Origin: Patescibacteria group bacterium
GTDB lineage: Bacteria > Patescibacteriota > Minisyncoccia > Phycocordibacterales > Phycocordibacteraceae
DNA: 64,000 nucleotides
Direction of reading: 5' to 3'
Assembly: GCA_013815345.1 (NCBI GenBank)
Contig: JACDGK010000002.1
Coordinates: 35,399 to 99,398, forward strand
Shown: positions 40,374-49,042 of the stretch, one piece after another
Position numbering within the stretch: the stretch's first letter is position 1
How the letters are laid out: each line of letters starts with the position of its first letter
Notes under the pieces: generated by a model
What the model was told of the DNA's origin: nothing
Databases searched by the model: none
What the model saw: the letters and a program-made list of their open reading frames with translations, nothing else
Translations under genes and position numbers: made by a program

Positions 40374-41981
40374 CTACACCGCTGGCTGCATAAGAGGTAT
40401 TTCAGCAATAAAGCTTGAACCCTTTCCGGCGCCTTCTGATTCGGCTCGTATGGTTCCGTGATGCGCTTCTACGGTGCTTTTTGCGATATAGAGACCGTAT
40501 CCCGTACTGTGGACGTTTATCTTGGACGATTCCTTTCCTTGACCTCCCTCGGTGAAAAGACGTGCTTTATCTTCAGAAGTAATGCCAATACCTGTATCGG
40601 TGACTGAGAAAATAATTTTATCTACCGTCTTTGTAAGCGAAACGGCAATTGAGCCACTTGGCGTGTAATTTATTGAATTCTCAATAAGATTTTGAAATAC
40701 GTGATCCTCCAGCTTTTCTTTATCGCCAACGAGCATAAAAGATTCAGTGCTCTCTGCAGACGGAAAGTGTAGAGCAAGTCCTTTGGCTTCTGCTGAAGGC
40801 TTCAACTTTTCCACGATTTCGCTCACCACCACCCTACAGTCAAATGGCGCCATCTGGAAGCTCACGAGTCCTTTCTTGAGATTTGATGCTTGAAGAAGAT
40901 CCATAACCATACGGGAATCTTTGCGGCTTTGGGGGAGAAGTTGGGTCACGAGCTGTTTTGCAGGTTCAGGAAGTACGCCATAGTCTCCATCCACAAATCC
41001 AGAAAAGGCACCCATATACCGTGCCAAGAAGCCTTTGACTTCGTGGCTGATGAAGTGGATAAGACCTTCTTGTCGTTCATTTGTCTGCTCAAGCTCCTCG
41101 GCGAGTTTTTCAATTTTTTCGCGTTGTTCGACTTCTCGTACCATGGTACGGAGTAGCCAGACACCGGAAAGAAGAACCAATGCCAATTCGCCAACACGGT
41201 ACAGAATGAGAAGCAGGTTGTTCGAAAACAAAATGTCAAAAAATGTTGCGGTAGCAAGAAAGAAGGTTAAAAGTCCAAAAACAGCAACTTGAATATTAAA
41301 TAGACGATAATGCAGTATTGAGTACGCTGTTCCGACAATAAAAGGCAGTAGGAATAATCCACCAAGAGATACCAGTGTTGGAATATTTAAAAAGGCAGGG
41401 AAAATAAAATCAAAGGTTATTAAAAAAACAAAAGTCAATATAACTCCTGCAAGTACTGGCTCCATCCTCTTTCTATCAAGACCCATTGATTTGAAAAAAG
41501 TCCTTACTAATTTCCAAAGACCAATACTCACATATATAATTACCGTTATACCAAAAAGCGCGATCCCTGGTCCAGTCTTTGTTTCAACCGTTGGTAGTAC
41601 CTGCGTTATAGATTGGTATATGAAAGGCGTGAGGGTCAATAAAGAGATACCGCTTGTCCAGACGAGGAGAATAATGAATAGAAGATGCGGCATAACAGCC
41701 TTTCTGCTGGGAAATTGATACGCAAGCAAGAGGAATGAAAACGCATGCCATATGGCGAAGAAGAGCACGATTCGTATAAACCAAATGATAGAGAAGCCGG
41801 TACCCGCTCGTATGCTTGCAAAATTAGCTACACTCCAACAAATACTCGCAATAGTAAAGAAAAGATATGCGCGGGCCGTTGCGCTTTTCGGTTCAGAGAA
41901 ATATATAGAGCAGCCGAGCGTTCCTGCACCCGCGACTGCAATGCCTACCCACAACAAATCTAAATTTAATATCGATTCCAT
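40374..41981 (-). CDS. multi-pass membrane sensor histidine kinase (no cognate response regulator adjacent)
   Basis: At least 8 TM helices N-terminally, coiled-coil, H-box ISHEVKGF, HATPase G-boxes (DTGIGI, GYGLYIAKS). Confidence 0.8.
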   Translation of the reverse strand: MESILNLDLLWVGIAVAGAGTLGCSIYFSEPKSATARAYLFFTIASICWSVANFASIRAGTGFSIIWFIRIVLFFAIWHAFSFLLLAYQFPSRKAVMPHLLFIILLVWTSGISLLTLTPFIYQSITQVLPTVETKTGPGIALFGITVIIYVSIGLWKLVRTFFKSMGLDRKRMEPVLAGVILTFVFLITFDFIFPAFLNIPTLVSLGGLFLLPFIVGTAYSILHYRLFNIQVAVFGLLTFFLATATFFDILFSNNLLLILYRVGELALVLLSGVWLLRTMVREVEQREKIEKLAEELEQTNERQEGLIHFISHEVKGFLARYMGAFSGFVDGDYGVLPEPAKQLVTQLLPQSRKDSRMVMDLLQASNLKKGLVSFQMAPFDCRVVVSEIVEKLKPSAEAKGLALHFPSAESTESFMLVGDKEKLEDHVFQNLIENSINYTPSGSIAVSLTKTVDKIIFSVTDTGIGITSEDKARLFTEGGQGKESSKINVHSTGYGLYIAKSTVEAHHGTIRAESEGAGKGSSFIAEIPLMQPAV

Positions 41982-41982
41982 T

Positions 41983-43050
41983 TTAAGGTGAAATTTTTAC
42001 CAAATGATCCGAAAAAGCAAACTGATAGCGTCCTGAGGGCAACGGTCGTTTAAGAATAATGGCTTTTGCGGCATAGCAAAGTATGGCACCTCGCAAAAAC
42101 GAAGATTCAGCAAGTTGTGGAATGCCCACGAGAGTCTTTCCAAAAGCTTCGAACGATTCTAGGAGTCTCGTGTCAAGATATTCCACTCCCATAAAATCAC
42201 GAGCCAAAGCAACTTTTTCATGAGGAAGCAGGTGCATGCTGCTGGGCGACGCAATCGTTTCATACACGTGTGGCTTCATAAGATTGTTAAGAATAGGAAG
42301 TTCTGCATCTTCATCAAAACGCTCTACATCAAGCAACACACCTTCTGCATTGCCGGTAACCATGATTACAGGAATGCGATTCGATCGAGCTTCTTTCCGC
42401 AGAGCAATCTTAAGAGGCAGCGCATCCATTTCCTCCACTATGAGATCGACTTTTGGGTTTTGCAAAAAAAGTGAAAGGTTGTCGGGAGTCAGTCCCGCTT
42501 CATACAACTCTAGTTTGTAGTAAGGATCAATCTCGAGGATTTGTCGCGCGGTAAGAGTCGATTTATTAATGCCAAGGTCACACAAACCAGCCCTAAAACG
42601 ATTGAGGTTGGTGAGCGAGAGCGGATCAAAATCAGCGAGCTTCATGTCGGTCGAGCCTCCCTCCAGCGCTATGCACACCGCACCGGGATTTCCCACATTT
42701 AATCCAGCAAACGCAATGTTCGCTTTTCCGAACTGTTCCTGCTCACTCGTGGTAAGCAATTCACGATTACGATTGGTGCGCAATTCACGATATGCTTCAG
42801 GTCCTACTATCCGTACGATAGTGTTTCGCCAGGGATACTCGACAAAGAACTCCCCAGGCTTGTCGACAAGCTCTGTGGGAGTTTTTCCCACAGATCGCGG
42901 ATCGCGAATTTGTGCTAGTTCTGAAAGTTGTTCGTCATAGGTATCAATAACGCGAGCTCCTTCTTTTTTTTGGAAATTTGCGATTTCAATACTGTCCTCT
43001 GGATCGTGTGGATTCAAGAGACGAATGAGCTGCGATACAGGTTGTGGCAT
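41983..43050 (-). CDS. ThiF/MoeB/E1-like adenylyltransferase-family protein with about 100-aa N- and C-terminal extensions
   Basis: Rossmann Gly-loop FAGLNVGNPGAV, DFD...LTNLNRF (cf. ThiF D-x-D...SNLNRQ), ...VIMVTGN; no CxxC zinc motif, no rhodanese domain. Confidence 0.7.
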   Translation of the reverse strand: MPQPVSQLIRLLNPHDPEDSIEIANFQKKEGARVIDTYDEQLSELAQIRDPRSVGKTPTELVDKPGEFFVEYPWRNTIVRIVGPEAYRELRTNRNRELLTTSEQEQFGKANIAFAGLNVGNPGAVCIALEGGSTDMKLADFDPLSLTNLNRFRAGLCDLGINKSTLTARQILEIDPYYKLELYEAGLTPDNLSLFLQNPKVDLIVEEMDALPLKIALRKEARSNRIPVIMVTGNAEGVLLDVERFDEDAELPILNNLMKPHVYETIASPSSMHLLPHEKVALARDFMGVEYLDTRLLESFEAFGKTLVGIPQLAESSFLRGAILCYAAKAIILKRPLPSGRYQFAFSDHLVKISP

Positions 43051-43077
43051 AGGATCATTCTACGACATCGGATCGAA

Positions 43078-44118
43078 TTACGAGCGGCGAAGTTTGTCTT
43101 TAAGAGGGATACGGGGAGTCATCCAGTCAACTTCCCCATCAATTTTTCCTGCCGCAAAGAGAAATTGGAGCGGCGACTGAAGAGTAAAAGCCACAGTTGC
43201 CGCCGCGCGTGTATCTTCATATTCTACTGAGGCGACAAAAACTGAGTAGTCAAAACCTTGAGCACACAGGGTAAGGGCCGCATGCGATGCCTGAAAACCC
43301 ACTCCCAGCCAGCCAATAAAGGACTCTTCTGCCCCAAACCCAACGACTGCTTTTGAGCTGGCTATAGCGCCAAAATTAAGTTTTGAAAGCACTGGGCCCA
43401 TATTAAGGAAGCGGATCATCGTAGGTAGGATCCATGATAAGATCACTGGCTGATTTAACGAGTACCCCGGTAAACCGGTCCTCTTGCGAGAACCGGTTGG
43501 AGTAATCCAATAAGACATTTCATTCCTAAACATTGGTAAGGCATAGACGCGCAATATATTTTTTGCCGTCTGCTCAGCGACAATTTTAATTTTTTCTTTC
43601 TCGATGAGTGTGGCTACTTCAGGAGGTCGTAAATCATGAGGGGTCAACGAGGAAGGTTGTCGGAGTTGGATAAGTAAGTCTTCAGGAATCTCCACGTTTG
43701 GATTAAAAAGACCCCGTCGGTTTCGACGCGTAAAAATGGCTCGGATCAAAGATTCATAGGTTTCATCAATAGTGCCGGTCGATAGTTCAAATGTTATATC
43801 AGCAATATGATCGCCCGTTGCATCGATAGTAAAATGCGTCGACATTCCAAAAAACGCCGTGATGCTTGAAATGTGGTGGAGAAGAAATCCGATGCTTACA
43901 TATGAATATCGTCCGACAGAATCTGAGTAGGGCAACAAAATGGAGGTATCTCTATACACAGAGAGTCTTTCTTTGTGTATCTTAAAAAGCCACGGTTGAC
44001 TGTTATGAGTGGAGGGCGCTCTCGTTGCTGCATTCAAAACATACGTCATTTGTTCCTCAAGTACACCAGAAAAGGGAAAGTTGTCTTTAAAGGCCGCGAG
44101 CGTGATGGGGACAGACAT
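43078..44118 (-). CDS. nitroreductase-superfamily protein, tandem-domain (SagB-type dehydrogenase-like)
   Basis: RAPSTHNSQPW nitroreductase FMN-binding signature near N-terminus; 346 aa, consistent with two nitroreductase-fold halves. Confidence 0.65.
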   Translation of the reverse strand: MSVPITLAAFKDNFPFSGVLEEQMTYVLNAATRAPSTHNSQPWLFKIHKERLSVYRDTSILLPYSDSVGRYSYVSIGFLLHHISSITAFFGMSTHFTIDATGDHIADITFELSTGTIDETYESLIRAIFTRRNRRGLFNPNVEIPEDLLIQLRQPSSLTPHDLRPPEVATLIEKEKIKIVAEQTAKNILRVYALPMFRNEMSYWITPTGSRKRTGLPGYSLNQPVILSWILPTMIRFLNMGPVLSKLNFGAIASSKAVVGFGAEESFIGWLGVGFQASHAALTLCAQGFDYSVFVASVEYEDTRAAATVAFTLQSPLQFLFAAGKIDGEVDWMTPRIPLKDKLRRS

Positions 44119-44140
44119 GCCTCAAATCCTACCATGCACG

Positions 44141-45694
44141 CTACGCTGCGGGACGAATGACCCACGGTTGTTTTATTCCGGGCTTAAAGTACAGAGGGTC
44201 TTCATACTGCCAAAATACGAGACGGGGCTCGGCTCGCTTTCCCATAAAATCTGAGAGTTCATGGAATTCTGAGTTTTTCTCGCGAAGATTTTTAAGAATT
44301 TCGCTTTGGAGTTCTGAGACGAAAATCTTTCCCGCCTCCTTTTGAGGTTTTAATTCAATATTGATTTCAAGATATTGATCCTCGTTATGGTCATATTTCG
44401 TGGTTAAAGTGAGCTTTCCGGTGAGCGTAGTATGGAATCGTCTATCAAGTAAGACTTCTTTGATTGTTTCAGGATAAATCTGCAAGCCATAGAGCGTCGT
44501 TGCTAGATCAATGCGTTCATAGACATACACAAAGGGTAGTTCAAGCACTTGCTTTGAAATACCAGCAGTTCGGGCTTCTTTCATAATGTCGATCTTGTGG
44601 GTCTTACAGCGATCTACCATCTCTCTGAATGTGTACACGCCTCCATGATCCCCTATCGAGTAACGAGCAAGCGGTATAGAGCTATCACCGGTCACGAGTA
44701 TCTCCCCATTAGGTGCCTCAAATGAAACAGAATCGGGAATGTATTGAGCAAGCGTCGGTGTTTTTGTGGTTCCTCTGAAAAGATCCGTAAAAAGTTTCTC
44801 GTTATTCGTGGCGAGACGACGAATAAGAATGGAGAGCGGGGTCTCAAAAGCCATAGTGCCAATATCAGCGCTTCCATAAATGTTAATGGCATCCGTAAGA
44901 ATGTTTTTTATCCCCACCTTTTCAGCAACGTGATCGCGAAACCGTTCAGTAAAAGCTTCTGCAGCAAAAAGAAGCATCACCCGGTGCTTTTCGAATGAAA
45001 TGCCTTCCTCGATCGCCTCATCAATAACGTCCTTGAGAAAAGGCGGATACCCGGCCAAAATTATCTGATCATACTGCGGCGCAAGATCGCGCAAGGTCTT
45101 TAAGATTTCGCTCTTATTGATACCCGGTGTAAGTATGGAAATCGGGTATCCTCGACGACTCATGAGTTCAAATGCCTGATAGGTGATAAGTCCTCCTATC
45201 CATACTCCCATGCCAAAACACACGATAACCAGAGTCGAGGAATTTAGTTTAAGCGAACTTGTTCGATAAATAAGTTCATGTATCAATGAAGAGCGTTCAT
45301 CAACCTCATGTGATCGTGCAAAGTAGGTTGGCTTTCCTGTGGATCCTGAAGTGGAAGTAAGAATGTGGGGCGAAAGTAGAGAACCGCGCCAAAAAAGTTC
45401 ATTAAAATCTGACGGATGAAGATAATTTTTCTTCGAAATTGAAGGGACGGTGGAGAAGTCTTCGAGTGTACTAATATTCTTTCGTTTTATTCCCTGAGAC
45501 CGAAGGAATTTCTTGTAGGCCGGAACCTTTTCAGCCATACGTTCAAAAAGTCGAACGACGTGCTCTTGATTGATACGGGTCCATTCTGCACTGGTATGGC
45601 TTCGAAGGCGCTTAAAGAAAGCGCCTGCGCTCGGTGTTTCTATAGCGTTTGAGAATTTCTTCCGTATCGTCATTGTTACCGTCTTACTGTCCAT
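44141..45694 (-). CDS. ANL-superfamily adenylate-forming enzyme, PaaK/coenzyme F390 synthetase/CapK-like
   Basis: P-loop TSTSGSTGKPTYFARS (SSGTTGKP-type), A-domain core motifs, 517 aa. Confidence 0.7.
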   Translation of the reverse strand: MDSKTVTMTIRKKFSNAIETPSAGAFFKRLRSHTSAEWTRINQEHVVRLFERMAEKVPAYKKFLRSQGIKRKNISTLEDFSTVPSISKKNYLHPSDFNELFWRGSLLSPHILTSTSGSTGKPTYFARSHEVDERSSLIHELIYRTSSLKLNSSTLVIVCFGMGVWIGGLITYQAFELMSRRGYPISILTPGINKSEILKTLRDLAPQYDQIILAGYPPFLKDVIDEAIEEGISFEKHRVMLLFAAEAFTERFRDHVAEKVGIKNILTDAINIYGSADIGTMAFETPLSILIRRLATNNEKLFTDLFRGTTKTPTLAQYIPDSVSFEAPNGEILVTGDSSIPLARYSIGDHGGVYTFREMVDRCKTHKIDIMKEARTAGISKQVLELPFVYVYERIDLATTLYGLQIYPETIKEVLLDRRFHTTLTGKLTLTTKYDHNEDQYLEINIELKPQKEAGKIFVSELQSEILKNLREKNSEFHELSDFMGKRAEPRLVFWQYEDPLYFKPGIKQPWVIRPAA

Positions 45695-45718
45695 GGAATT
45701 TATTATAACACACGTAAT

Positions 45719-46741
45719 CTATTTTGGAAATAGGGTGGAGAATATATCCAAAACGAAGGGCATATCCTTCGGAGAAGGAACTCCCATGCGGAGAGTTGAA
45801 TGTAATAATTCCTTTGCTTCTGTAAATTTACTCATAGACTCTCCTATTGCTACTCTAACACCCTTCGCTCGTAATTCGTCCGCCAGAGTGTGCGCATTGG
45901 GTACTCGGATAAGAATGAAATTTGTTTCAGAGCTATATATCCTAATGCCGGAAAGACGCGAAAGCGCACTGCTAAAGTAATCCCGTTCTTGTATAACCAT
46001 TTGACGACGTACGCGAATTGATTCTGTTCGCCGCATTCCCTCCTCCGCTGCAAACATACTCATATGCGCAATGGGCCAAGGCAACATACGCTGCTCCATT
46101 TTTCTGATTATTTCGGGCGCGGCGATACAGTAGCCAACTCGAGCACCCGAAAGACCAAAACCTTTTGAGAGGGTGCGAATGATCACGAGATGAGGTGTTT
46201 GAAGTAAGAAAGGCAAAAGCGTCTTACCAGAAAATTCAAAATACGCTTCATCAGATACCAGCAGTACGTCACTTTCTTGAGCAGTGGTAACTATTCTTTC
46301 TATCGTCTCTTCAGGAATACTACAACCCAGAGGATTATTAGGTTGGCATAAAAAAAGCGCTTTTGCGGTGTCTCGCCGGAGGGCAGTAAGGGTATCAGCA
46401 AGAGGGAACACAAATGCGCCGTCGGTTTCGGTGTAATATACGGGATGTGTTACTCCTCCTACTCGATCCAGTATGGATTCGTATCCATAAAAGGTTGGTA
46501 CCGGAAGTACGGCTTCCCTTCCGTGGTTCACATAGAGCTCCGCAAGTGTTTGAATGGCAGCATCTGAGCCGGGAGTAAGGCAGAGTTGTTCGGGGATAAC
46601 CCCGCTATATTCGGCAATTTGTTTTTTGAGTTCATTGTAATTGGGATACGTTGAAAATTCGTTCTGTGTGTAGGTTTGGAATGCTTTACGAAGCTCCTCA
46701 TCCAGTAGCCAGTAACTCTCATTTTTATCCAACGGAATCAT
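45719..46741 (-). CDS. class I/II PLP-dependent aminotransferase, HisC-like (histidinol-phosphate aminotransferase/CobD family)
   Basis: N-terminal LDKNES (cf. LD.NENP), PLP-lysine motif TLSKGFGLSGARVGY. Confidence 0.75.
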   Translation of the reverse strand: MIPLDKNESYWLLDEELRKAFQTYTQNEFSTYPNYNELKKQIAEYSGVIPEQLCLTPGSDAAIQTLAELYVNHGREAVLPVPTFYGYESILDRVGGVTHPVYYTETDGAFVFPLADTLTALRRDTAKALFLCQPNNPLGCSIPEETIERIVTTAQESDVLLVSDEAYFEFSGKTLLPFLLQTPHLVIIRTLSKGFGLSGARVGYCIAAPEIIRKMEQRMLPWPIAHMSMFAAEEGMRRTESIRVRRQMVIQERDYFSSALSRLSGIRIYSSETNFILIRVPNAHTLADELRAKGVRVAIGESMSKFTEAKELLHSTLRMGVPSPKDMPFVLDIFSTLFPK

Positions 46742-46802
46742 AAAAAGTAAGTATATCGCGGAACGTGGTTCTGAATTTTAAAATTCAGTCTTAAATTGTA
46801 AC

Positions 46803-47180
46803 TTATCGTTCGAGCAAGAAGAGAACAATGAGAGGCGCGATGAACCACCAGAAGAAGAACGTTGTGGGATCGAAAATAGTGTTAACGATTGGGGGAAATG
46901 CATAGATGCGGGTGATGGCGAAGCTGTGGTATCCGAGTGCGAGGAGAAAACCAATAAGGAGTACTACTTGCAGGATCATCGCAGGAAGACGGGAACGTCC
47001 AGAGCGCGTCACGACACGCTTTACGATGAAATAGGAAACAATCACGAATACTGCGTAGATCACGATCGACAGTATTGTCCGCATCAAAGGCGTACCACCG
47101 ATGGAGAGAACATTTTCGGAATAGGGAAAGATGCTATACACCGCGTAGCCGAGATACAACGAAATGGTAAAAGCATTCAT
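46803..47180 (-). CDS. hypothetical 4-TM membrane protein
   Basis: 125 aa, four hydrophobic helices; first gene of the minus-strand operon. Confidence 0.5.
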   Translation of the reverse strand: MNAFTISLYLGYAVYSIFPYSENVLSIGGTPLMRTILSIVIYAVFVIVSYFIVKRVVTRSGRSRLPAMILQVVLLIGFLLALGYHSFAITRIYAFPPIVNTIFDPTTFFFWWFIAPLIVLFLLER

Positions 47181-47205
47181 CTCTTTAGCATAAACCTAAT
47201 GAAGA

Positions 47206-47313
47206 CTTTGTAATAGAGAATAGGAGTGCATAATTTTATCGCACGCATAATTCTCTGCTGAAAATTTGCTCCACTCGCGCCGACGCGCTGCGTGAGGCGC
47301 TAAAATTATGCAC
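47206..47313. repeat. 108-nt element with 23-bp perfect terminal inverted repeats (gagaataggagtgcataatttta / taaaattatgcactcctattctc)
   Basis: Arms 47206-47228 and 47291-47313 exactly reverse-complementary; 62-nt GC-rich spacer with sub-hairpins; lies between dnaJ stop and the membrane gene start. Confidence 0.6.
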
Positions 47314-47337
47314 TCCTATTCTCCCCCCACGTATCGT

Positions 47338-48532: not shown

Positions 48533-49042
48533 TTAACAGTGGTACTGATATTGATACTGGTAACCACCATAAGGGTAACTTTGTGACTGATATTGGTACT
48601 GATTGTAAAGTGGTTGCTGATACCCACATCCCGTATTCATTGGCTGCTGATAATAATTGTACGAGTTGTTGTACCAATTATTATTGTACGAAGTGTTGTA
48701 ATTGTTGTTTTGATACTGCCAGGAATTACCGTATCCAGGATAACTATTGTAGTTATTATAACTATTGTTATATGAAGGATATTGGTTCCATTCTTTTAGA
48801 ATACAGTTTGGATCATAGCGACCATTGCAGACGGATCTACCCTGATATCCGCCGTAGTAGGAGTTGTTGTAATTGCTATACCCATTCATATAGCTATTAC
48901 CATACCCGTTGTTGTAGTTATTATAATTTGGATAATACGAAGCAAACGCAGGCGTAGCAAGCAACAGACCCCCCAAGGCTAGGGCACCAGCGGCTACTTG
49001 AGCGAGACGGATTTTTGTAGTCATACGCGTAGACATTAGCAA
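48533..49042 (-). CDS. secreted Tyr/Asn/Gln-rich low-complexity protein
   Basis: Signal peptide ...ALALGGLLLATPAFA; mature region almost entirely Y/N/Q/S/G with 4 Cys; sits between dnaK and dnaJ on the same strand. Confidence 0.5.
   Translation of the reverse strand: MLMSTRMTTKIRLAQVAAGALALGGLLLATPAFASYYPNYNNYNNGYGNSYMNGYSNYNNSYYGGYQGRSVCNGRYDPNCILKEWNQYPSYNNSYNNYNSYPGYGNSWQYQNNNYNTSYNNNWYNNSYNYYQQPMNTGCGYQQPLYNQYQYQSQSYPYGGYQYQYQYHC

Follow-up and report, generated by a model that had tools for sequence, protein, structure and literature searches.

In the present study, a 64,000-nucleotide (nt) stretch of contig JACDGK010000002.1 from a Patescibacteria group bacterium (the whole stretch is referred to as the window) was analysed with respect to a compact operon of six minus-strand genes at positions 40374-47180. 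Herein, we propose that this operon is a Patescibacteria variant of the oxazolone (azlactone) pathway of OxzAB, TyzACB and TrzAS, with a sensor histidine kinase in the same functional unit; this reading is considered probable, although only somewhat beyond an even chance. Two sets of observations carry the proposal. First, a ThiF-like protein and a flavin oxidase encoded side by side in the operon are homologous to TrzS, and their catalytic motifs are conserved. Second, the gene set is conserved in other genomes, and several of its enzymes occur there as natural fusions. The features of the operon are as follows, in the order of transcription.

46803-47180, minus strand: small polytopic membrane protein (125 amino acids, aa; 3-4 hydrophobic segments)
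45719-46741, minus strand: class I/II pyridoxal phosphate (PLP) aminotransferase, HisC-like (340 aa; PF00155, 2e-46)
44141-45694, minus strand: divergent PaaK-fold ANL enzyme, assigned by AlphaFold2 (AF2) fold and motifs (517 aa)
43078-44118, minus strand: tandem-nitroreductase flavin-dependent oxidase of the type of Acg, TyzC and the C-terminal half of TrzS (346 aa; NF047509, PF14512/PF00881)
41983-43050, minus strand: ThiF-like adenylating cyclase (355 aa; PF00899, 2e-11; NF005901)
40374-41981, minus strand: seven-transmembrane (7TM) sensor histidine kinase, last gene (535 aa; HisKA_7TM and HATPase_c)
47181-47337, no strand: possible promoter region, the sole sizeable intergenic gap upstream of the gene string (157 nt)

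All six open reading frames (ORFs) were confirmed at these positions, as had been described in a first-pass annotation made from the sequence alone. The intergenic gaps are 61, 24, 22, 27 and 1 nt in operon order and then 26 nt to tyrS. Proteins identical to the ANL enzyme and the ThiF-like protein are recorded in NCBI under Patescibacteria, the genome being of the Paceibacteria/Parcubacteria type. Since hundreds of homologues were found for each of the six proteins at 45-80% identity, these ORFs are real genes and not chance occurrences.

The ThiF-like protein, its oxidase partner and their conservation

In TrzAS, present in Mycobacterium tuberculosis, M. smegmatis and Rhodococcus, TrzA is an acyl-coenzyme A (CoA):tryptophan N-acyltransferase, and TrzS (Rv1355c) is a fusion of a ThiF cyclase and a flavin oxidase that converts N-acyl tryptophan to N-acyl tryptazolone through ATP-dependent cyclisation followed by O2-dependent desaturation (PMC12856293). 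The same reactions are performed on N-acyl tyrosine or phenylalanine by TyzB/TyzC (PMC10404671) and OxzB (PMC12596934; 10.1101/2020.06.11.147165). Oxazolones are liable to hydrolysis (PMC12856293). In the known oxazolone clusters, which have been reported from Pseudomonadota, Actinomycetota and Planctomycetota, genes for a ThiF enzyme and a nitroreductase accompany that for an N-acyl amino acid synthase, and a methyltransferase is sometimes encoded as well (PMC12479983, PMC12856293).

The ThiF-like protein of the window matched the Rv1355c family model NF005901 with 281 bits (2e-83), residues 9-350 aligning with model positions 13-339 of 722, whereas the ThiF, MoeB and TcdA models of NCBIfam each gave 15-47 bits. 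Identity as a canonical ThiF, MoeB or TcdA was rejected on this comparison, and the suggestion that the gene might prove to be an ordinary MoeB or ThiF with a ThiS or MoaD partner can be set aside. A tblastn search of plasmids returned solely actinobacterial proteins annotated as "Rv1355c family" or ThiF family, at 33-38% identity over 81-100% of the query, the coverage being 90-100% for those of the Rv1355c family, and the alignment with the actinobacterial locus L085 was collinear across the N-terminal extension, the Rossmann core and the C-terminal extension. Over its entire length, the protein is thus a homologue of the N-terminal half of TrzS, and it keeps the adenylation motifs. Residues D140, D142, N148, N150, R151, E206, E207, D209, E243, R244, D246, P311 and Q312 are invariant, and, judging from motif position, they probably include the Asp equivalent to D217 of TrzS. 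No CxxC pairs are present, in agreement with the earlier remark that the Cys4 zinc site is missing. In the AF2 model (predicted local distance difference test score, pLDDT, 94), the closest folds were AclA, ThiF, PaaA, MoeB and TcdA, each over approximately 265-275 alignment columns; nothing on AclA (9egb), the closest structural match, was found in the searchable literature. The solved structure nearest by sequence is TcdA, an oxazolone-forming cyclodehydratase.

The tandem nitroreductase, in which the previously quoted motif was found as APSTHNSQPW, matched the Acg FMN oxidoreductase family model NF047509 (7e-35, 121 bits, cut-off 199) and the C-terminal half of the Rv1355c model (4e-11, 42 bits). 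Only the Acg family, the Rv1355c family, PRK14851 and BluB were returned by the NCBIfam scan at E<=0.01. The nearest solved structure is Acg (2ymv, 9e-9), which is also the closest to the oxidase domain of TrzS according to the authors of that study (PMC12856293), and the APSxxNSQPW and RxxxR motifs are common to the nitroreductase and the TrzS-type half. In TrzS, changes to the adenylation Asp and to the RxxxR motif have been shown to block cyclisation and desaturation, respectively. We propose that the enzyme may act as a C-alpha/C-beta desaturase. Taken together, the matches to the Rv1355c and Acg families, the collinearity and the closest solved relatives argue that the pair is, by sequence, a split homologue of TrzS and of the same enzyme type as OxzB and TyzB/TyzC, and not the C plus B half of thiazole/oxazole-modified microcin (TOMM) machinery. 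Unlike in TrzAS, the two activities are encoded here by two genes, the oxidase followed by the ThiF-like protein; the oxidase is divergent, and the NCBIfam equivalog cut-offs are missed, since the separate proteins, at 281 and 42 bits, both lie below the curated Rv1355c cut-off of 476 bits. A fused form is nonetheless found in Patescibacteria, as a 731-aa single protein at the locus L077.

Relatives of the ANL enzyme were sought in one genome per species and found in 321 genomes; the best 80 matches were examined, all of which are from Patescibacteria and represent many candidate lineages. The six window proteins were mapped onto these related loci, and the counts given below refer to the 48 loci with at least 3 kb of upstream and at least 6 kb of downstream flank. 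The ANL enzyme, ThiF-like protein, nitroreductase and kinase are collinear in nearly all loci; the ThiF/nitroreductase pair or its fusion was observed in 44 of the 48 and the kinase in 47, confirming that the gene set is conserved elsewhere. The nitroreductase gene always adjoins the ThiF gene or is fused with it. Because the genomic context beyond these genes varies between lineages, they are conserved as a unit, referred to here as the module. The order found in the window (type A) is ANL, nitroreductase, ThiF, kinase; in type B, the order is ANL, ThiF, nitroreductase, kinase, and the nitroreductase is much nearer to the oxidase half of TrzS (186 bits). In an exhaustive search of 1.84 billion representatives, the ANL family comprised 506 clusters (50% identity) at E<1e-30, and representatives at 31-32% identity keep the same neighbours. 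Moreover, fusions of dehydrogenase-ANL (847 aa), ANL-ThiF (863 aa), ThiF-ANL (880 aa) and dehydrogenase-ANL-ThiF (1242 aa) were found, the triple fusion in two independent assemblies, with a nitroreductase on one flank and an alpha/beta hydrolase and 7TM kinase on the other. These natural fusions, the triple one in particular, confirm that the enzymes belong to one pathway.

What lies between the enzyme genes and that of the kinase varies. An alpha/beta hydrolase of approximately 291 aa is found there in fusion-bearing loci (L088 9732-10607; L090 3767-4648), and a protein of approximately 310 aa with weak S-adenosylmethionine (SAM) methyltransferase matches in 11 other loci (e.g. L005 13714-14652); these tailoring genes parallel the methyltransferases of stieleriacine clusters (PMC12479983). 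Other arrangements were also observed. On two metagenome contigs (L093 273-8915 and L094), a dehydrogenase, nitroreductase(A), ThiF(A), ANL, ThiF(B), nitroreductase(B) and 7TM kinase form one operon. The metagenome-assembled genome REEB413 carries two paralogous modules (L005 and L009), one of type B with a methyltransferase-like gene before the kinase, and the other of type A with an insert of approximately 6 kb between the ANL and nitroreductase genes that includes an S9 peptidase and TrmB-type regulators. Outside the phylum, on plasmids of Streptomyces and Kitasatospora, a 622-aa protein with a related C-terminal ThiF domain and a weak N-terminal GNAT match is encoded at L086 (5128-8042), and a similar ThiF-family protein at L087 (5137-8021); in both, a ketoacyl-acyl carrier protein (ACP) synthase III gene immediately follows the ThiF-family gene, which may represent another variant of ThiF-type cluster.

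The ANL enzyme and the proposed amino-acid step

The family-level calls of the first-pass annotation hold in Pfam and NCBIfam searches, with the ANL enzyme as the exception in Pfam, where no match was obtained. Among the NCBIfam models, PaaK (TIGR02155) gave only 53.7 bits (cut-off 646.3) and F390 synthetase (TIGR03335) 22.2 bits (cut-off 458.7). The AF2 model (pLDDT 74) has a PaaK-clade fold, with PaaK1/2, BT_0428, 2-hydroxyisobutyryl-CoA ligase and ClxA matched at Foldseek E values of 1e-12 to 1e-19. The TSTSGSTGKP motif noticed earlier is present, and the SGSTG core of TSGSTGKP, the R, Y, I, G and D of RYSIGD and K508 in PGIKQ are invariant columns in the family alignment. The fold and these motif positions, including the C-terminal lysine motif, are shared with the PaaK clade. 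Motifs and predicted fold together point to an active adenylating enzyme of that clade. Unlike its characterised members, the enzyme shows only 15-18% identity to them, exceeds PaaK in length by approximately 80 residues and never occurs as part of a paa operon; no paa genes were seen near the ANL gene in the window or in the maps of related loci.

Within the PaaK clade, ClxA binds 3-amino-4-hydroxybenzoate and its adenylate (9s45), and a GH3-like ANL enzyme that produces an N-acyl amino acid lipid provides a precedent for amide formation (PMC12493201). No acyl-CoA N-acyltransferase or N-acyl amino acid synthase was found in the window cluster or conserved beside the module, no direct search with a verified synthase sequence having been made. 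The families conserved beside the module are ANL, ThiF/nitroreductase, kinase, aminotransferase, dehydrogenase, methyltransferase-like and receiver proteins, and a scan of the other neighbours that recur gave housekeeping genes or insertions present only occasionally (S9 peptidase, TrmB-type regulator, ApbE). The gene adjoining the Rv1355c homologue on a Mycolicibacterium plasmid is likewise not a TrzA-like acyltransferase. Because no acyltransferase that could use a CoA thioester is present, we assume that the ANL enzyme forms the amide itself and acts as a ligase giving an N-acyl amino acid. It had been suggested that this enzyme sits in the place of YcaO; more plausibly, it would stand in for the N-acyltransferase of the oxazolone pathway. 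The operon thus resembles other known oxazolone clusters in that a separate or fused ThiF cyclase and a nitroreductase-family desaturase share an operon with a proposed N-acyl-amino-acid-making enzyme, whereas those clusters use a GNAT-like or acyl-homoserine lactone (AHL) synthase-like enzyme fed by acyl-CoA or acyl-ACP and have no ANL enzyme, no transaminase or dehydrogenase and no dedicated sensor kinase. The differences from TrzAS are of the same kind, with the PaaK-fold enzyme instead of a TrzA-type acyltransferase and with the aminotransferase or dehydrogenase and the 7TM kinase added.

The aminotransferase gave 216.8 bits against the hisC model TIGR01141 (cut-off 276.55); no his genes were seen among the annotated flanking genes, and the sequence shows a PLP-lysine context (LSKGFGLSGARVGY). 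In 14 of the 48 loci, the gene immediately upstream of that for the ANL enzyme encodes this class I/II aminotransferase, and in 11 it encodes an ELFV amino-acid dehydrogenase, the best model for the latter being the tryptophan dehydrogenase ScyB (327 bits, below cut-off). At L001 and L069, a class IV branched-chain aminotransferase takes this position, and that of L069 passes the IlvE cut-off. As three unrelated enzymes fill the same slot, conversion between a hydrophobic or aromatic amino acid and the corresponding 2-oxo acid appears to be a genuine pathway step. An ApbE-family (flavin transferase) gene was observed just upstream of the aminotransferase or ANL gene in L012, L013, L018, L020, L066 and L083, and this may be mere local synteny.

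The 7TM histidine kinase and the surroundings of the operon

The last gene of the operon starts 1 nt past the ThiF stop codon and encodes a kinase with HisKA_7TM (2e-8) and HATPase_c (6e-22) domains; HisKA was detected in the orthologues. Residues 4-280 are hydrophobic and form approximately seven membrane helices joined by short loops; from there, a coiled-coil linker leads to His313 in the motif HEVK. No extracytoplasmic domain is present, and the input domain is wholly membrane-embedded. The kinase had been termed an orphan; it is not incidental but the most constant partner of the enzymes, being orthologous over its full length, membrane domain included, in distant loci (34% identity), and its start lies -4 to +38 nt from the preceding module gene in 53 of the 63 cases measured. 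This near-obligate and tightly spaced place at the end of the operon makes the kinase part of the system. In addition, the architecture of approximately seven helices with short loops and no extracytoplasmic domain suits a membrane-soluble ligand, and most plausibly the kinase would sense the hydrophobic product or a related membrane-soluble cue. In CqsA/CqsS, AgrBDCA and ComQXPA, the genes for the synthesis of a small hydrophobic or modified molecule adjoin a polytopic kinase without an extracytoplasmic sensor domain. The module is alike in gene arrangement. Unlike these systems, it mostly has no response regulator next to it, and those that do occur are stand-alone receiver domains.

Several further observations concern the kinase. 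A protein search with its 7TM part returned two matches only, probably because hydrophobic words swamped the index. At L091 (1273-3292), two proteins of 221 and 225 aa consist of the HisKA_7TM membrane domain only and are encoded just upstream of an ANL-ThiF pair. A Yanofskybacteria-type contig (L001 14891-17038) carries, approximately 2.7 kb downstream of the module, genes for a stand-alone receiver and for a fusion of a receiver with T2SSE (pilus/secretion ATPase); these receivers are a possible output of the kinase, seen in one lineage only.

The flanks of the operon consist of housekeeping genes and agree with the earlier description, with the heat-shock locus grpE-dnaK-dnaJ upstream and tyrS, tRNA-Tyr, trpS, aspS, pepA, scpAB, a DD-carboxypeptidase gene, mraY and ftsW downstream. 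Promoter and terminator scans revealed no enrichment above shuffled background, and neither the DNA nor the short ORFs of the 157-nt upstream gap are conserved in related loci. The Rfam scan returned tRNA-Tyr only. For the small membrane protein at 46803-47180, no significant Pfam match was obtained; its homologues (families 33 and 47) lie upstream of the cluster nearly always where dnaJ is also upstream, so that it may belong to a dnaJ synteny block instead of the module, and its membership of the module is uncertain. Between dnaK and dnaJ, a 169-aa ORF without a Pfam match (48533-49042, minus strand) encodes a hydrophobic segment at the N-terminus and, after it, a low-complexity sequence that is extremely rich in Asn, Tyr, Gln and Gly.

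Proposed pathway, alternative explanations and significance

On the basis of these results, the following pathway can be proposed. First, the aminotransferase, replaced in relatives by the ELFV dehydrogenase or the class IV aminotransferase, would supply a 2-oxo acid or an amino acid by converting one into the other, the amino acid being hydrophobic or aromatic. Second, the ANL enzyme would adenylate a carboxylic acid, for which that 2-oxo acid, an aryl acid and a short-chain acid are candidates, and couple it directly to the amine of the amino acid, giving an N-acyl amino acid without acyl-CoA and replacing the N-acyl amino acid synthase. Third, the ThiF-like enzyme would adenylate the free carboxylate, and the amide oxygen would close the oxazol-5-one ring, after which the flavin oxidase would add the C-alpha/C-beta double bond. 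The products of the methyltransferase-like or hydrolase genes present in some lineages would modify the reactive ring or open it. Finally, the translationally coupled kinase may signal via a stand-alone receiver, which is encoded beside the module in some relatives and would lie outside the window here. The first-pass annotation had suggested a system for a modified amino acid, peptide or cofactor; one biosynthetic unit acting on a modified amino acid stands, whereas the analogy to peptide modification does not. Its statement that no characterised pathway combines these enzyme classes also requires revision in part, since the ThiF protein together with a nitroreductase-family oxidase is a characterised oxazolone synthetase (PMC10404671, PMC12856293); it remains valid for the rest of the combination. 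In its furthest form, the module might be a self-contained chemical signalling unit of candidate-phyla-radiation bacteria, in which a membrane-soluble oxazolone or dehydro-amino-acid signal is made from scavenged amino acids and the co-transcribed 7TM kinase is its receptor, in a quorum-sensing-like or symbiont-host setting. We offer this only tentatively and consider it rather unlikely as a whole.

Several points weigh against the proposed pathway and its link to signalling. In line with the first-pass annotation, which noted none for the operon, a response regulator was not detectable anywhere in the 64-kb window, and a stand-alone receiver was found within 11 kb in just 11 of the 48 related loci. 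Stand-alone receivers are encoded, for example, at L042, L063 and L090. The nitroreductase of the window is divergent, with its 42 bits on the Rv1355c model compared with 186 for the other kind in relatives, and is without two insertions. Enzymes of the PaaK clade are mostly CoA ligases, and an amide-forming role is assumed solely from the missing acyltransferase. Approximately half of the loci have neither an aminotransferase nor a dehydrogenase beside the ANL gene, and some operons carry two ThiF/oxidase pairs around one ANL gene, which a simple linear scheme fails to explain. Moreover, the known oxidases of this kind work with O2, whereas an anaerobic lifestyle is assumed for many Patescibacteria.

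Among the alternatives, the one that survives best is that the metabolite is made as proposed and the kinase responds instead to membrane stress or to a membrane cue of external or host origin, doing no more than regulate or accompany the operon. The scarcity of response regulators in the window and in the related loci is consistent with this alternative, as are the extra proteins with the 7TM domain only in some loci and the finding that HisKA_7TM has no established ligand in the searchable literature. On the other hand, the kinase is nearly always last in the string, usually at -4 to +38 nt, across very different contexts, and CqsA/CqsS, the Agr system and ComQXP are synthase-receptor pairs with such an arrangement. 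We therefore regard this alternative as a serious, if minority, possibility.

It is also conceivable, although improbable, that the ThiF-like protein and the oxidase close and desaturate another ring, such as a diketopiperazine or a morpholinedione from a dipeptide or an N-(2-oxoacyl) amino acid produced by the ANL enzyme. In a related version, the reactive azlactone would serve only for acyl transfer, with a dehydro-amino-acid amide or ester as the end product. Judging from the dehydrogenase-ANL fusions, the ANL enzyme may act directly on the 2-oxo acid or on the amino acid derived from it. In some loci, a gene for an alpha/beta hydrolase or a methyltransferase comes after those of the enzymes, and the occurrence of two ThiF/oxidase pairs in one operon would fit as well. 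Furthermore, nitroreductase-family oxidases desaturate diketopiperazines in albonoursin biosynthesis (cited in 10.1101/2020.06.11.147165), and stieleriacine-type clusters give dehydrotyrosines, with the oxazolone not observed (PMC12479983). However, the sole characterised members of this ThiF clade make oxazolones (PMC12856293, PMC10404671), and the sequences give no pointer to a different nucleophile.

A peptide-modifying system, that is, a ribosomally synthesised and post-translationally modified peptide (RiPP), TOMM-like or MccB-like pathway with the E1-like protein for binding of a precursor peptide and the ANL enzyme in the place of YcaO, is very unlikely. The comparison with TOMM machinery and an MccB-type peptide clamp, both raised at first, draws on the co-occurrence of E1-like and flavin dehydrogenase proteins in TOMM clusters and on PaaA and MccB being among the structural matches of the ThiF-like model. 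The nitroreductase, however, matches the Acg and Rv1355c families and no SagB-type model, and no YcaO or precursor ORF was found in the cluster or in the related gene maps. In accordance with the earlier failure to see a precursor gene, no conserved small ORF was found in or beside the cluster, where there is also no room for one, and the short ORFs at the junction of the membrane protein and aminotransferase genes are equally unconserved. The extensions of the ThiF-like protein are collinear with those of the small-molecule enzyme TrzS, and the Foldseek matches to MccB (3h9g) and PaaA (5ff5) span approximately 270 columns of the 355-residue query, with the matched ranges not reported. Least credible of all is a catabolic or energy-conserving route, in which a dehydrogenase or aminotransferase yields a 2-oxo acid, a PaaK-like acyl-CoA/acid ligase serves ATP gain or scavenging and the ThiF-like protein and oxidase have an unrelated role in sulfur transfer or cofactor synthesis: although arylacetate-CoA ligases are found in the PaaK clade and ELFV dehydrogenases frequently serve catabolism, the cluster has no conserved gene for a 2-oxoacid:ferredoxin oxidoreductase or a ThiS/MoaD-like protein, the MoeB and ThiF models score at 15-47 bits versus 281 for Rv1355c, and the physical fusion of ANL with ThiF ties both to the same substrate stream.

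Two further candidates were tried and rejected. A cobamide-related role, with a CobD-like aminotransferase and a BluB-like nitroreductase, was dismissed because the slot in relatives holds a Leu/Phe/Trp-type dehydrogenase or an IlvE-type aminotransferase and the BluB match is marginal (0.0086). For anti-phage defence, PADLOC returned only generic E1 and ATPase domain matches.

In full-text literature searches, no description was found of the Patescibacteria version of the oxazolone pathway, of an ANL enzyme in the place of the synthase or of a linked kinase. Oxazolone synthetases were discovered between 2021 and 2025, and the physiological role of their products is unresolved according to the authors (PMC12856293). 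Patescibacteria have small genomes and few biosynthetic pathways, and in the operon described here an acyl-CoA-dependent step appears to be replaced by an ATP-dependent ligase. Independently of any signalling, this ANL subfamily would be a new candidate for a CoA-independent amide-forming ligase, and the dehydrogenase-ANL-ThiF fusions, each a single polypeptide, are convenient objects for biochemical work. Should the kinase sense the product, the module would provide a directly testable model of oxazolone function and the first candidate small-molecule signalling system in this phylum; if the signalling unit is real, bacterial oxazolones would have a physiological role. This operon variant hints at a chemical signalling system in a group of little-understood bacteria.

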